A stretch of DNA of 64,000 nucleotides from Candidatus Poribacteria bacterium (GCA_965242965.1 OZ251518.1:3104001-3168000); one strand, 5' to 3'. Shown: positions 34,293 to 61,832, counted from the stretch's first letter. Numbers and translations: made by a program. Notes: a model not told the origin generated them from the sequence alone.

Positions 34293-34561
34293 TTATTGCG
34301 GTGGTGCCGGTGGCGTGCTTGATGGCGGCGGTTCCTTGAAGGGTTGTCCTTTCGCGGCTGCTTGCAGTCGCCGTTGATTCCACGCTGTCCACTCCCGGTC
34401 GCGCTCGGCGATGCCCTGGGCGATGCCTTGGCTTTCCCTTCGGCGATGCCTTGGGCTCTCCCTTCGGCTTTCCCCTGGGCGATGCCTTGGGCTCTCCCTT
34501 CGGCTTTCCCCTGGGCAATACGCTGTGCGCGTTCCTCCATGAACATTTGATACTTAATCAT
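34293..34561 (-). pseudogene. Stand-alone duplicate of the C-terminal module of 34638-35114, with a 1-nt frameshift
   Basis: AGGAGG-7-ATG MIKYQMFMEERAQRIAQGKAEG...; one base is missing near 34430; the corrected frame ends ...EWTAWNQRRLQAAAKGQPFKEPPPSSTPPAPPQ*. Confidence 0.75.
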
Positions 34562-34637
34562 CAGCCAGCCTCCTATTTCAAAACCAAATAATTTGGTATT
34601 GGGCGCGGTTTGCAACCGCGCCTCTAGCCGGTGCGTG

Positions 34638-35114
34638 CTATTGCGGTGGTGCCGGTGGCGTGTTTGATGGCGGCGGTTCCTCGAAGGGTTGTCCTTTCGC
34701 GGCTGCGTCCAGTCGCCGTTCATTCCACGCTGTCCACTCCCTGTCGCGCTCGACAATGCCTTCGGTTTTTCCCTCGGCTTTTCCTTCGGCTTTCCCCTCG
34801 GCTTTGCCCTGGGCGATGCCTTCGGCTTTTGCCTTGGCAATGCGTTGCGCGCGTTCATCCATGAACATTCGATACTTAATCATTAGCCAGCCTCCTATTT
34901 CAAAACCAACCATCGTCAAGAAGAAGGCATACGGCAGGCAGTTCGTCATATGTCCGACGATGGCGATGCACGTTTCCGTAAAACCTTTCCCTTGCTCAAT
35001 TTCATACCATCCTACGAGGATGTTGTAAGCGATAACCAATGCCGAGAATACGAAAATGCCCGGCTTCTCCCAAACTTGCCTGAGGCTCAAGAGGGATATC
35101 CGCTGTTCTTTCAC
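34638..35114 (-). CDS. 2-TM family protein with internal RBS/ATG (34883) and a GKAE-repeat tail
   Basis: GTG start after AAGGAG, two hydrophobic helices, (G/A)KAEG repeats and the tail WTAWNERRLDAAAKGQPFEEPPP. Confidence 0.75.
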   Translation of the reverse strand: MKEQRISLLSLRQVWEKPGIFVFSALVIAYNILVGWYEIEQGKGFTETCIAIVGHMTNCLPYAFFLTMVGFEIGGWLMIKYRMFMDERAQRIAKAKAEGIAQGKAEGKAEGKAEGKTEGIVERDREWTAWNERRLDAAAKGQPFEEPPPSNTPPAPPQ

Positions 35115-35255
35115 TAAAACTCTCCTTATTATATTATAGCATATTCTGCAGGATTCATGCAAGACGGTTCTGACTTTTTTCAGGACAATTCAATTGCGCT
35201 GCCCCGCGCTCAAACAGGTTGGGACAGCTGCGAATTTCCACAGAATCTTGTGTTT

Positions 35256-36203
35256 CTACAAATGAAATTCGACTACGTCTCCATCGTAAATGACCTGGGT
35301 GCGGCTAACAGGTTGCCCATCGTGCCAGTGCGCGCCCCAGATTCGTGCGAGTCGGAATTCGGCGAAATCTTTGTGCAGCCCAGTGGCGGCATCCAGCACC
35401 GTCGCGCCAATGGGGAGGACAATCGGAGCATCGCGTTCGACCGGTTTGCCGGGTGCTTTCGGATAGACTCGCAGGATGTTTAGCGCGCCGTATAACGCTT
35501 TTAACAACTCCGCTTTGCCCTCGCCAGTTTGGGCAGAAATCGGGTAGAGCTGCACCGATTGTCCGTAAAACTCCGAGAGAATCTCCAACCGTGCATCGGC
35601 ATCGACTGCGTCTAACTGATTGGCAACGACGAGCGGTTTTTCTTCGCGCTGTCCTGCTTCGTCTAGCACGGCAAGCACCATCTCCAAGTCGTCAAGCAGT
35701 TCATCGCTGGCGAGGCTGAGAACAGTCAGCACCAACTCGGCGTTTCGGACGAGCGTCATCACCGTCGACGAGACGAAATCTGGCATGAGTGACGGCGTGT
35801 CGATGAGTTGGAATTGGATGTTTTCGTAAGGGAGCATCCCGACGAGCGGTGCGGTTGTCGTGTAAGGCGTGGGGGAAACGACGGGTTTCGCTTTCGTGAA
35901 AGCAGCGAGTATCTGCGATTTGCCGCTGTTCGGTGGCCCGAGCAACACGATTTGTCCGGCACCTTGTTTGGGGATGTGTTCGCTATATCCCTTCCGCGCG
36001 CCTTTTTTACCGCCGGTTGCGGCCGCGCCTTTTTTGATTCGGGCGATGCGCCGACGTAGATCAGCGACAACCTTCTCTGAGCCTTTGTGCTTGGGAACGA
36101 TGCGCAGCATTTCCTCAAGGAGAACGAGACGTTCCGCGTCGGTTTTCGCCGCTTCGTGCTCATGTTTGAGTTTGTAATATGGCGGTGGCAGATTTGCAGG
36201 CAT
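35256..36203 (-). CDS. DRG/OBG-like GTP-binding protein with a TGS domain
   Basis: MPANLPP...PKHKG, GPPNSGKS, YTT, DTP and a C-terminal TGS domain (LHKDFA...ARIWG...DGDVVEFH). Confidence 0.88.
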   Translation of the reverse strand: MPANLPPPYYKLKHEHEAAKTDAERLVLLEEMLRIVPKHKGSEKVVADLRRRIARIKKGAAATGGKKGARKGYSEHIPKQGAGQIVLLGPPNSGKSQILAAFTKAKPVVSPTPYTTTAPLVGMLPYENIQFQLIDTPSLMPDFVSSTVMTLVRNAELVLTVLSLASDELLDDLEMVLAVLDEAGQREEKPLVVANQLDAVDADARLEILSEFYGQSVQLYPISAQTGEGKAELLKALYGALNILRVYPKAPGKPVERDAPIVLPIGATVLDAATGLHKDFAEFRLARIWGAHWHDGQPVSRTQVIYDGDVVEFHL

Positions 36204-36226
36204 GGTGTGCCTCCGAATTTTGGGGT

Positions 36227-36601
36227 TTAGGAATCGCGGGCTTCTAACTTCTGAATCAGCATATCAATCTGCTGTTGTTGCGCGGCAATTTGTTTTTGCT
36301 GCGCGTCAATTTGCTGTTGTTGCGCGATGAGCTCCTCGCGTGCGGTGGATTCCCTTTTCCACTCCTTTACGATGAGCGCGAGAGGAATACCGACGGTAGC
36401 AGCGACAAACGCGAGCAGTACCAAGGTCATCGCAAAATCCCGGTCCTGCTGTCTCTCAATAGCCACGAGTTCCGCACGCAACCGGTTTTCAGATTCTCTG
36501 ACAATTTCACGGATTTTGTTGAAGTCTTCGACATCCAATGCGCCGAATGCCGAAGTGCTGATGAGAAGTAAACCGATGAGTAAACTGAGTCCAAGTTTCA
36601 T
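36227..36601 (-). CDS. Signal peptide - coiled coil - TM - Q-rich coil protein, paralog 3
   Basis: MKLGLSLLIGLLLISTSAFG; AAGGAG RBS; tandem paralog. Confidence 0.75.
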   Translation of the reverse strand: MKLGLSLLIGLLLISTSAFGALDVEDFNKIREIVRESENRLRAELVAIERQQDRDFAMTLVLLAFVAATVGIPLALIVKEWKRESTAREELIAQQQQIDAQQKQIAAQQQQIDMLIQKLEARDS

Positions 36602-60397: not shown

Positions 60398-60509
60398 GTC
60401 TGGTTTCGGTTGCGCTTGCGGTGCAACCTCATTCCTCCTGTTGTGTGCCTTAATAGGCACGCTTTGACTTTTTTCCGTTGGCTCCTACCTATATAATACC
60501 GATTTTCTT

Positions 60510-60725
60510 TTCTGTAGTTTCTCCTACTGGCTCATCGAGACCAGGAGGTCTCGCCTACCGCGGGGAGTCGAGACCAGGAGGTCTCGCCTACCGGGCGTGC
60601 ATCGAGACCAGGAGGTCTCGCCTACTGGTGCATCGCGACACTGTAGTTCGGGAGCACCTGCTCCCGAAACGGACGCGGAGGAGTCTCTCCTACGGGGCAG
60701 CATGGCATCCGAGGGCCCGCCTATA
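60510..60725. repeat. REP cluster
   Basis: Three copies of tcgagaccaggaggtctcgcctac plus gtagttcgggagcacctgctcccg. Confidence 0.85.
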
Positions 60726-60766
60726 ATAACATCACGATGAAATTAAGTCAATAGGAGCAGTTGGAA

Positions 60767-61141
60767 CTACTCATCATTCTGTGCCGCGGCGTTGCGATTC
60801 TCGGCGGGAGTGGGTTCGGTGAAGTCCTCGCCGGCGGCTTCCGCAGCCTTCCGACGATTATACCATTCCACCCATTCACGATTCGCAAGTTCCCAGCCGA
60901 TGGCACCGCCGAGTTTCCTACTGAGTTCTCTGCTGCGTGCTTCGCCGAGCTCCCTAGCAAGTTCTCTGTCGATTGCTTCCCCGATTGCCTCGCCGAGTTC
61001 CCTGCCGCGTGCCTCGCCGAGTTCCGTAGCGAGTTTCCAGCTGATAGCCTCGCCGATAGTCTCGCCGCGGCCATCGCGGCGTGCTTCGCGCCTCCGCCTC
61101 CGCTCCTTAATCTGTTCCATCACCAAATCATACAAAATCAT
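60767..61141 (-). CDS. Stand-alone C-terminal module of the 2-TM family (124 aa, expanded GEAIGRELA repeats)
   Basis: MILYDLVMEQIKERR...WVEWYNRRKAAEAAGEDFTEPTP; ATGA-coupled to the upstream ORF. Confidence 0.75.
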   Translation of the reverse strand: MILYDLVMEQIKERRRRREARRDGRGETIGEAISWKLATELGEARGRELGEAIGEAIDRELARELGEARSRELSRKLGGAIGWELANREWVEWYNRRKAAEAAGEDFTEPTPAENRNAAAQNDE

Positions 61142-61341
61142 TTGTCGTCCGGTGCGCCGTTGCGCTTCTCAGCGGGATTGGGTTCGGTGAAGTCCTCGCC
61201 GGCGGCTTCCGCAGCCTTCCGACGAGCCTCCCATTCCACCCACTTGCGTCGCTCAAGTTTTATGCCGATTTCCTTGCCGCGTTCCTCGCGCTTTCGCTGC
61301 CGCTCCTCAATCTGTTCCTTGACCAAACCATACAAAATCAT
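61138..61341 (-). CDS. Stand-alone C-terminal module of the 2-TM family (67 aa)
   Basis: MILYGLVKEQIEERQ...WVEWEARRKAAEAAGEDFTEPNP; ATGA-coupled. Confidence 0.75.
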   Translation of the reverse strand: MILYGLVKEQIEERQRKREERGKEIGIKLERRKWVEWEARRKAAEAAGEDFTEPNPAEKRNGAPDDK

Positions 61342-61832
61342 TTGTCGTCCAGCGCGCCGTTGCGCTTCTCGACGGGGTTGGGTTCGGTGAAGCGTTTGCC
61401 GGCGGCTTCCGCAGCCTTCCGACGAGCATCCCACTCAAGCCACTCGCGGCTCTCACGTTCCTTGCCGCGTGCTTCGCCGATAGCCTCGCCGAGTTTCCTG
61501 CCACGTGCCTCGCCGATAGCCTCGCGCTTCTGCTGCCGCTCCTCAATCCGTTCCTTAACCAAACCATACAAAATCATCGGAACCTCCACTCCTAGAAATA
61601 GAACCAGCACGGGAATCGCCGCCGCTGTCGGAATCGCCGTCGTGATGTCAACGACAATTGCCCGCACCGTCTCATAGCCAGTCCAGCCTTTGGACAGGTG
61701 ATAACTAATCGCCATGCCACCATAAACCGAGATGAGGATGCAAAACATGAATAGCGCGATACCTACCCATGCCCGCCGGACACCTAAAAACTGCACCCAA
61801 TCTCTATCTTTGTGCTGCTCCTCTTTTTTCAT
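61338..61832 (-). CDS. 2-TM family protein with internal RBS/ATG (61577)
   Basis: VQFLGVRRAW head, two TMs, GGAGG-5-ATG MILYGLVKE. Own promoter TTGACA-17-TAAAAT at 61872-61900. Confidence 0.78.
   Translation of the reverse strand: MKKEEQHKDRDWVQFLGVRRAWVGIALFMFCILISVYGGMAISYHLSKGWTGYETVRAIVVDITTAIPTAAAIPVLVLFLGVEVPMILYGLVKERIEERQQKREAIGEARGRKLGEAIGEARGKERESREWLEWDARRKAAEAAGKRFTEPNPVEKRNGALDDK

Follow-up and report, generated by a model that had tools for sequence, protein, structure and literature searches.

A two-helix membrane protein family of Candidatus Poribacteria with a conserved internal start and an Rpn-related C-terminal module: a candidate intragenic toxin-antitoxin system

A stretch of 64,000 nucleotides (nt) from the 5.7-Mb genome of a Candidatus Poribacteria bacterium (GCA_965242965.1 OZ251518.1, positions 3104001-3168000; hereafter the window) contains seven genes, g1 to g7, for small proteins with a putative two-helix membrane (2-TM) domain. 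Each gene carries an in-frame Shine-Dalgarno (SD) sequence and an ATG behind the second helix, from which a short C-terminal protein (S) could be translated alongside the full-length long form (L). Such an arrangement is known from Rpn nucleases, where RpnS is produced from an internal site within the rpn genes, as described in a preprint (Zhong et al., 2023, bioRxiv 10.1101/2023.05.02.539157). For the genes studied here, the favoured reading, considered probable, is an Rpn-type gene-within-gene plan in which a membrane domain replaces the nuclease and S neutralises L. The evidence comes from sequences: the anatomy of the genes, selection on the internal SD and on free-standing copies of S, repeat polymorphism and homology between the S module and the C-terminus of an Rpn-family nuclease. 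It is quite likely that the family produces both L and S in vivo. On balance, S is expected to pair with L through a repeat helix and to modulate it. By analogy with Rpn, the chances that L is a membrane toxin neutralised by S appear about even, and a role in phage defence is a tentative proposal. Feature coordinates count from the start of the window.

Anatomy of the seven genes

All seven open reading frames (ORFs) delimited by an earlier, sequence-only reading of the window were borne out. They lie on the minus strand, and their proteins span 147-230 amino acids (aa). The common plan described in that reading is seen in all seven: A short charged leader and a related head are followed by hydrophobic helices, a Met and a repeat-rich coil. 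The count of two hydrophobic helices before the Met is backed by Kyte-Doolittle segments, except that in g1 a single segment exceeds the threshold. Six of the seven proteins end in the terminus W..W..RR..A...G..F.EP.P, the exception being g2 (42226). A sequence check recovered the internal in-frame ATG with the reported motif and spacing in 7/7 genes.

g1 L (34638-35114) starts with a GTG that is preceded at 7 nt by AAGGAG. It comprises the 2-TM domain, AEGK-type 4-residue repeats and the W..W..RR tail. The internal SD of g1, AGGAGG (34891-34896), lies 7 nt ahead of an ATG (34883-34881) that opens an S frame of 81 aa up to the stop (34638-34883). g2 L (42226-42873) belongs to a tail-less subfamily with an AFPGGIPKRW head and a Q/E/R/A coil; here, GGAG (42592-42595) stands 6 nt before the ATG at 42585. 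In g3 L (51365-52057), g4 L (52139-52810), g5 L (53874-54560) and g6 L (54645-55319), AGGAG (51772-51776, 52525-52529, 54281-54285 and 55052-55056, respectively) is followed after 8 nt by the ATG (51763, 52516, 54272 and 55043). g7 L (61338-61832) has GGAGG (61583-61587) 5 nt ahead of the ATG at 61577. Two copies of the tail occur in g3 and equally in g4 to g6, where W..RR..G..F.EP.P is present twice in tandem per protein with two tail-model matches each. These four genes are close paralogues, so the seven genes amount to about five lineages. In g3, g4 and g6, the real start is likely a TTG a few codons inside the GTG noted before.

Conservation of the internal start

Searches with tblastn and a hidden Markov model yielded 22 full-length genes and 10 partial copies in the window's genome, which fall into five subfamilies. 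When 19 paralogues, 13-76% identical to g1, are aligned, just two columns are invariant, and the internal Met is one of them. GGAG or GGAGG is present 5-14 nt before the internal ATG in 19/19 paralogues. Three members of the fifth subfamily likewise carry an internal SD, and GGAG or GAGG is found 5-14 nt upstream in 22/22 L genes. As a background, internal in-frame ATGs of long ORFs of the same genome were examined: GGAG precedes 504 of 21,731 (2.3%) at a distance of 4-11 nt, compared with 16 of the 19 paralogues under the same rule.

From many genomes, 101 family ORFs were fetched, and 90 were left after 11 tail-only pieces had been set aside. The codon at the internal Met is ATG in 87 of them and GTG in 2, with one misaligned. 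This means, the sole substitutions are to another start codon. The SD is encoded via varied residue pairs (GG, GA, GV, GD, WE, LE, KE and VE), with GGAG in two registers, GGA-Gxx (Gly-Ala/Val/Asp/Gly) and xxG-GAG (Trp/Leu/Lys/Val-Glu). For each of 59 distinct 8-residue contexts, codons were drawn from genome usage. An SD is present in 49 contexts compared with 11.5 expected, and 0 of 200,000 simulations reached 49, where the shared descent of the paralogues and genomes compared makes P values overstate independence. The prediction that the SD and ATG after the second helix are conserved at the DNA level beyond amino-acid constraint was upheld by these counts. At positions -6 to -2, the Gly codon is GGA in 56/79 cases versus 144/753 elsewhere in the same genes, and the Glu codon is GAG in 32/36 versus 448/1388. 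The subfamilies are too diverged for synonymous-site identity by simple inheritance. In addition, genuine gene starts of this organism use strong AAGGAG-type sites, so that it employs SD-led initiation.

Without any internal initiation, GGAG could be a pause signal that aids membrane insertion of helix 2, or simply be inherited, and the short copies behind the long genes (orphans, see below) would be decaying duplications. The location of the motif exactly at the end of the second membrane helix, the frameshift in the g1 orphan and six L-gene contexts without SD are in line with this explanation. However, a pause does not require an initiation codon, whereas 89 of the 90 ORFs retain ATG or GTG, and both substitutions are GTG. 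Furthermore, nine of the ten orphans are intact, under purifying selection and begin at that very ATG with an SD or a stop/start overlap. The same signature is also found on the Rpn-like genes of this genome, and for Rpn, internal initiation has been shown experimentally elsewhere. An explanation by pausing or inheritance is therefore regarded as very unlikely.

Orphan short genes

Ten tandem orphan copies of the C-terminal part are present at 9 loci of the window's genome, one or two per locus, head to tail directly behind the long gene. Nine of them have an intact frame between the internal ATG and the same stop, which does not hold for the copy behind g1 (34293-34561, minus strand), a tandem unit that retains the 25 nt before its ATG (34561) with AGGAGG included. 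Its frame is broken by the loss of one base near 34429 within a C run, so that the copy is either a pseudogene or the result of a fault in the assembly. Behind g7 lie two intact orphans on the same strand. The ATG of the first (61138-61341, 67 aa) overlaps the TGA stop of g7 in AAATGA, and that of the second (60767-61141, 124 aa), which has more repeats, overlaps the TGA of the first. Both overlaps have the classic layout for translational coupling. The sequence-only reading had registered one orphan and missed these two.

The start of the orphan units was read at seven junctions, apart from which the two g7 orphans and the 4328591 orphan were read. Six units begin 0-25 nt and one ~70 nt before the internal ATG; since they start upstream of it, most keep the SD. 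Each of those units closes after a hairpin 3' of the stop. For g1, this is GGCGCGGTTGCAAACCGCGCC (34565-34637, minus strand), a sequence that recurs beside another locus of the same genome. At one locus outside the window, the hairpin is a ~30-nt element with many genomic copies. Because the unit boundaries vary by locus, the copies go back to independent events, each of which preserved the start.

Across eight orphan/parent pairs, the proportion of synonymous differences (pS) is 0.223 and that of non-synonymous differences (pN) 0.057, a ratio of 0.25. Two pairs display 7 and 3 synonymous changes and zero non-synonymous ones. Neutral decay of one partner would be expected to yield a pN/pS nearer 0.5 according to our own estimate. 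By this comparison, the nine intact orphans are under purifying selection. Among 150 listed database representatives, 6 start exactly at the internal Met, and partial matches starting there were also encountered in other genomes.

Two sources of the tandem copies were rejected. An integrative element restoring the 3' end of a gene was ruled out, as the orphans follow within 0-120 nt and leave no room for it. A diversity-generating retroelement was dropped, since many loci are involved and no reverse-transcriptase-like ORF was visible by eye among the neighbours of 13 loci outside the window, for which no family search was made.

Repeats and predicted pairing

The lengths of near-identical g1 orthologues extend in 4-residue steps between 142 and 190 aa, the one difference being the count of AEGK/AEGI/AQGK units, which begin ~18 residues past the Met. 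When four sequencing runs were compared with 34600-35250, only short contigs were obtained. Contigs from three public runs of two studies contain 48 extra bases in the g1 repeat tract, which is a hint only, as the contigs are short and may represent a paralogue. A 310-base step back in the same comparison was discarded as a variant because it merely mirrors the tandem orphan.

A homodimer of g1 S was predicted with an ipSAE of 0.55 compared with 0.00 for the best of 3 controls. In calibration, the ipSAE mark was reached by 20/30 one-chain pairs and 1/23 single chains, and it is approximate here, a custom alignment having been used. At least 95% of the contacts agree between the runs, the predicted local distance difference test (pLDDT) of the partner is at least 82, and the contacts are in register over residues 14-54, i.e. 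the repeat helix. According to these models, S is predicted to dimerise through this helix.

Tandem copies and varying repeats might also mean that the orphans are silent cassettes, from which gene conversion swaps repeat lengths into an expressed L. Conversion would run between the conserved 5' end, made up of the SD, the ATG and the initial 15-20 codons, and the 3' end with its tail and hairpin, similar to pilE/pilS or to orphan CdiA/Rhs C-termini, and could coexist with the Rpn-type reading. In agreement with this idea, orphans differ from their parents mostly in repeat number with flanks that are 84-98% identical, the copies are strictly tandem and head to tail, and the 48 extra bases in the contigs of three runs would fit if they do not stem from a paralogue. 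Nevertheless, a silent cassette needs neither a working SD or ATGA overlap nor an intact frame nor the retained pN/pS of 0.25, and at 13 loci outside the window neither a linked recombinase nor an immunity gene was seen. A cassette function is considered improbable.

Relationship to Rpn nucleases

In some genomes, tail-only matches exposed a module that starts with MRESPFYQ and is composed of (GLEQ)n repeats and the same tail. Two related genomes encode a 290-aa protein that ends in this module. The 290-aa protein matches 44 plasmid records, the 15 best listed of which are from Synechocystis and Nostoc. The genes under these matches are annotated as 'Rpn family recombination-promoting nuclease/putative transposase' or 'DUF4351 domain-containing protein', with tblastn E-values of 1e-11 to 1e-17 and ~30% identity over 83% of the length. 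One of 324 homologues bears the source name 'predicted transposase YdaD'. Pfam and NCBIfam return nothing for the 290-aa protein at E<=0.01, and among 41 aligned relatives DUF4351 is found in 3 and PF04754 in 2 (weak, E 0.078). Most members of the alignment have a DUF4351-like end and three have the W..W..RR tail; conservation of the Met preceding the repeats amounts to at least 90%. A fold search with the Rpn-like model ranks restriction endonucleases first, none at E<=0.001, so that the assignment to Rpn rests on the annotation matches in the plasmid records.

From the repeats to the end, two-helix members are 57-64% identical to the module of the 290-aa protein. BLASTP of the 290-aa protein against a 2-TM member resulted in 63% identity over 46 aa (E 2e-18), and hhalign aligned the short-module profile with the Rpn-like C-terminus at 97.2% probability and an E-value of 3.9e-11. 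Judged by these alignments, there is clear homology between the repeat-plus-tail module and the C-terminal part of an Rpn-family nuclease that related Poribacteria possess.

The gene for the 290-aa protein also contains an internal start: TTGGAGGAAATC-ATG (GGAGG-5-ATG) is located at the Met before the repeats. An alignment-based search discovered 18 full-length Rpn-like genes and 7 short copies in the window's genome, where PF04754 and PF14261 detected nothing. Rpn-like genes are located outside the window, e.g. at genome positions 3184760-3185915, 5531833-5533521 and 2258069-2259248. Six of the 7 short copies lie directly downstream of 5 of the 18 genes. All 18 have GGAGG or GAGG 5-7 nt before an ATG (17) or a GTG (1), encoded by varied residues, and the internal SD and start are kept in 6 of the 7 short copies. 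The signature of the experimentally proven Rpn family is thus repeated without change in the membrane family of one and the same cell.

Zhong et al. (2023) provide the features needed for a comparison. RpnS repeats consist of 4 residues, one hydrophobic and three charged or glycine, begin 8-20 residues past the RpnS Met and vary in number between strains. A mismatched repeat number abolishes RpnS neutralisation, and the Rpn dimer interface is found on the repeat helix. Separate rpnS genes are located downstream of rpnE and rpnC, e.g. ypaA behind rpnE. Experiments demonstrated internal initiation in E. coli and with a gene of C. difficile, and Rpn, whose genes form toxin-antitoxin and anti-phage systems, is a toxin neutralised by its own S form (10.1101/2023.05.02.539157). 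The sequence-only reading had proposed a new system analogous to Rpn. Its analogy applies to the architecture and has become more than an analogy, as the repeat-plus-tail module is homologous. Novelty was lost at the same time: A short module that shares descent with Rpn makes the family a variant of the known Rpn kind, which is neither part of the Rpn family itself nor an entirely new system.

Range and structure of the family

A profile search among 1.84 billion representatives found 907 matches at E<=0.001 and 174 at E<=1e-10. A named-source search returned 311 matches at E<=1e-5, none of which is named and almost none of which has a Pfam entry. Within the phylum, the protein family occurs in 127/176 genomes and is restricted to three taxonomic families within a single order (103/111, 10/11 and 13/29 genomes), with 0/24 in the other eight. 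Matches per genome vary from 0 to 35. In the Protein Atlas, the closest clusters are unnamed hypothetical proteins, and the phylum label they bear most often is Chloroflexota, which is a lead on range only. One scan of viral contigs with narrow patterns of the g7 subfamily did not yield a relative.

None of the seven proteins has a match above cut-off in Pfam, NCBIfam, PADLOC or PHROGs, and a fold search with the g7 model gave 0 matches at E<=0.001. A known and functionally unrelated membrane protein did not emerge from the family libraries or by fold. The short module has no match in Pfam or among PDB sequences, and PF14261 at E<=1 hits 0/21 short-module sequences, orphans included. The short module is fused onto just 11 longer proteins (234-264 aa), in all of which Pfam domains are absent. 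Conservation within the family is highest in the tail, with W, R, A, F, E, P and P nearly invariant in 108 sequences, and no other protein of the window's genome carries it.

For g7, AlphaFold2 with a 108-sequence alignment (pLDDT 90.9) predicts a helix (20-47), a short loop and an unbroken helix (53-144). The latter holds membrane helix 2, the Met at residue 86, the repeats and the W..W..RR part. Following the positive-inside rule, both termini of the membrane hairpin should be cytoplasmic.

At 13 loci outside the window, the genes stand alone among unrelated, mostly housekeeping-looking neighbours, as seen by eye from translations. Neither a conserved partner gene nor phage-like neighbours were seen by eye at these loci. 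A habitual location in defence islands, as the surroundings within the window had suggested, does not agree with the housekeeping-looking genes that flank most of them. Thirteen genomes were searched for one L gene plus orphan that forms a 1.05-kb insertion between two ATP-binding cassette (ABC) genes. The insertion is present in 2 genomes of the same genus and missing at the ABC site in 6 genomes of other genera with both flanks placed, where the flanking genes are 110-196 nt apart. Together with the lack of a visible conserved partner, this speaks for a self-contained and mobile unit.

Two products might be made and L might still be harmless. L would then be non-toxic and serve as an anchor or tether in the membrane, with its cytoplasmic coil and W..W..RR tail recruiting a partner, and S would be a soluble competitor or regulator of this recruitment. 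This would imply a housekeeping or symbiosis-related family rather than a toxin-antitoxin (TA) or defence system. It would account for ~22 intact L genes in a single genome that reside by eye mostly amid housekeeping-looking genes without defence neighbours, for a 2-TM domain that matches no toxin or defence model, and for the outstanding conservation of the tail, which fits a binding motif. Against an anchor stands the presence of the same S module on an Rpn-family nuclease, since Rpn is described as a family of S-neutralised toxins. Moreover, a copy number of 0 to 35, one lineage-specific insertion and strain-variable repeats are typical of conflict systems and not of structural proteins. 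The tail is on no other protein of the genome, and a linked candidate partner was not found. An anchor is an unlikely explanation.

Proposed mechanism

According to the Rpn-type reading, L would be translated from its own SD and start and consist of the charged leader, the membrane hairpin, one continuous helix exiting the membrane, the repeats and the W..W..RR tail. The conserved SD and ATG at the membrane exit of helix 2 would give rise to a soluble S, identical to the cytoplasmic part of L. The tandem orphan genes directly downstream would supply S as well. S and L may pair in register along the repeat helix, where the repeat number between two conserved ends would set the match. Such matching could insulate ~22 paralogous pairs per cell from each other. 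By analogy with Rpn, pairing of L with L may gather membrane hairpins in an assembly that disrupts the membrane and does harm. Capped by S, L would remain inactive until S disappears or is outcompeted, e.g. upon phage infection.

A wider and rather speculative idea is that the short module is a portable intragenic antitoxin which, like a plug-in, becomes joined by recombination to toxic effectors of unrelated kinds, in Poribacteria to PD-(D/E)XK nucleases as well as to a two-helix membrane effector, and which forms an abortive-infection repertoire of ~40 barcoded pairs. If this were true, a cell would have ~40 insulated L/S pairs, 22 of the membrane and 18 of the nuclease type in the window's genome, every one with a repeat length of its own, and the orphans would serve as spare keys or decoys. 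Two clamps, formed by the W..W..RR tail and by the conserved residues that follow the Met, would restrict pairing to helices of equal repeat number.

Several observations weigh against the Rpn-type reading. The promoter scan detected no internal promoter. Pfam, NCBIfam, PADLOC, PHROGs and the fold search gave no match between the 2-TM domain and a known toxin, holin or defence effector. In the AlphaFold2 model of g7, the internal Met lies at the membrane edge inside one continuous helix, so its conservation may have a structural cause. It is in the exact aligned column in 116 of the 150 listed representatives, and several of the others have a Met one residue off, as read from the alignment rows. 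SD sequences are absent from 10 of the 59 contexts, namely from four orphans on or beside an upstream stop and from six L genes (QVWDII-, QVVDLI- and IWGSL-type). In view of these six genes, internal initiation may not be universal. The repeat region of the orphan differs in length from that of the neighbouring L in 7/8 pairs, and by the Rpn rule, such an orphan should not bind that L. A hairpin stands between L genes and orphans, which bears on how the orphans are transcribed. No RNA run containing the locus (window 52000-61950) was listed. To this, the shared descent behind the SD counts has to be added.

Promoters and neighbouring genes in the window

A near-consensus promoter had been claimed for every locus. 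The promoter scan called sigma-70-like sites upstream of only 4/7 genes, all on the minus strand: g2 (42909-42880), g4 (52910-52881), g6 (55421-55392) and g7 (61900-61872). Upstream of g1, it found TGnTATAAT with a poor -35 region; upstream of g3 and g5, no sigma-70-like promoter was called. A promoter-like combination of TTGACA, a 17-18 nt spacer and TATCCT with TG is present four times on the minus strand (42909-42880, 41451-41423, 40937-40909 and 40410-40382). These sites precede g2 and three other small genes, including the paralogous 99-aa ORFs 40513-40812 and 41000-41299. Antisense promoter-like sites on the plus strand (TTGTCA, 16 nt, TAAAAT) are located at 51867-51894, 52620-52647 and 54376-54403 within the 5' halves of g3, g4 and g5. 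Their conservation follows from the near-identity of these genes.

The sequence-only reading had placed the genes beside TA, PD-(D/E)XK and repetitive extragenic palindromic (REP) elements. This is correct for an MqsA-like/DUF4258 pair, a PDDEXK_3 protein and REP copies, and does not extend to two neighbours of 202 aa without a Pfam match. A DUF4258 protein and an MqsA-like zinc-finger antitoxin (53172-53766, minus strand) sit as a pair between g4 and g5, and the PDDEXK_3 protein is encoded at 50624-51202. An IS200-like Y1 transposase domain (PF01797, E 2.2e-11) at 43502-44605 on the minus strand lies amid short G+C-rich repeats (~43166-44420) and looks like a REP-associated transposase with its own REP array. 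The two ~202-aa proteins are paralogues. One (33614-34222, minus strand) directly follows the g1 orphan, and the other (41553-42158, plus strand) converges on g2. For neither of them did Pfam yield a match, and the PD-(D/E)XK label given to them earlier was not confirmed.

Three tandem paralogues on the minus strand (36227-36601, 36666-37067 and 37132-37746) combine two hydrophobic stretches, the N-terminal one of them signal-like, with a Q-rich coiled coil, and no family matches them above cut-off. Beside ftsZ, a pair of paralogous genes at 57863-58273 and 58342-58890 on the minus strand encodes small retropepsin-like aspartyl proteases (PF13650).

Significance

A commentary on the Rpn discovery asks whether it is "a tip of a proverbial iceberg" (PMC10400984). 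A membrane version of Rpn was not found in the literature searched, which did not cover Dataset S1 and SI figures S6 and S7 of Zhong et al. If the Rpn-type reading is true, the logic of Rpn, together with a homologous short module, also serves a second class of effector, namely a membrane domain, and the intragenic-antitoxin cassette would be a modular one that can be exchanged from effector to effector. With dozens of natural paralogues in each genome, the idea of a repeat-number barcode could be put to a clean test. An unannotated family, which has 907 database representatives and abounds in sponge symbionts, would gain a plausible role. For annotation, this is a warning that such genes and the small ORFs behind them may encode more than one real product.

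Comparison with known systems

Two-helix abortive-infection effectors and class II holins are small proteins with two membrane helices, cytoplasmic ends and a charged C-terminal tail that oligomerise in the membrane; the dual starts of holins lie at the N-terminus. The predicted L form shares the two helices, the cytoplasmic ends and the charged tail with them. However, the best match to a PHROG holin reaches only E 0.01, and the start found here is located after helix 2 instead of at the N-terminus. A linked sensor, cyclase or lysis cassette was not seen at the 13 loci outside the window.

Rhs/CdiA polymorphic toxins are large secreted proteins with a variable C-terminal toxin and a cognate immunity gene after each orphan cassette. 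The present proteins comprise 147-230 aa and have no secretion domain. Behind their orphans, which differ from the parent mainly in repeat number, no further (immunity) gene is present. In Type I-D Cas10d/Cas11d, an internal start yields a long and a short C-terminal protein that are co-assembled (cited in 10.1101/2023.05.02.539157). These products cooperate in one complex, and repeats, orphans or a membrane domain play no part.

The orphans resemble DUF4351 (PF14261)/YpaA-type RpnS genes in that both are separate small genes copying the C-terminal module of a neighbour. They differ from them by the lack of a PF14261 match, and two of them are coupled to the upstream gene by an ATGA overlap.

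The closest known system is the RpnL/RpnS pair. The effector is a different one: In place of a nuclease there is a two-helix membrane hairpin, with no match to PD-(D/E)XK (PF04754) in the seven proteins. The module ends here in the W..W..RR..A...G..F.EP.P motif and in Rpn in a DUF4351-type helical bundle, and an internal promoter was not detected in the present family. Several features are shared. Both families are multicopy and patchily distributed, and in both, extra short genes sit directly downstream of the long gene. Both have 4-residue repeats of strain-variable number that start at a similar distance from the Met (~18 versus 8-20 residues), and the short module dimerises via the repeat helix, which is a prediction in the case of the family described here. 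Finally, both possess an in-frame internal SD and start codon ahead of a small C-terminal domain.

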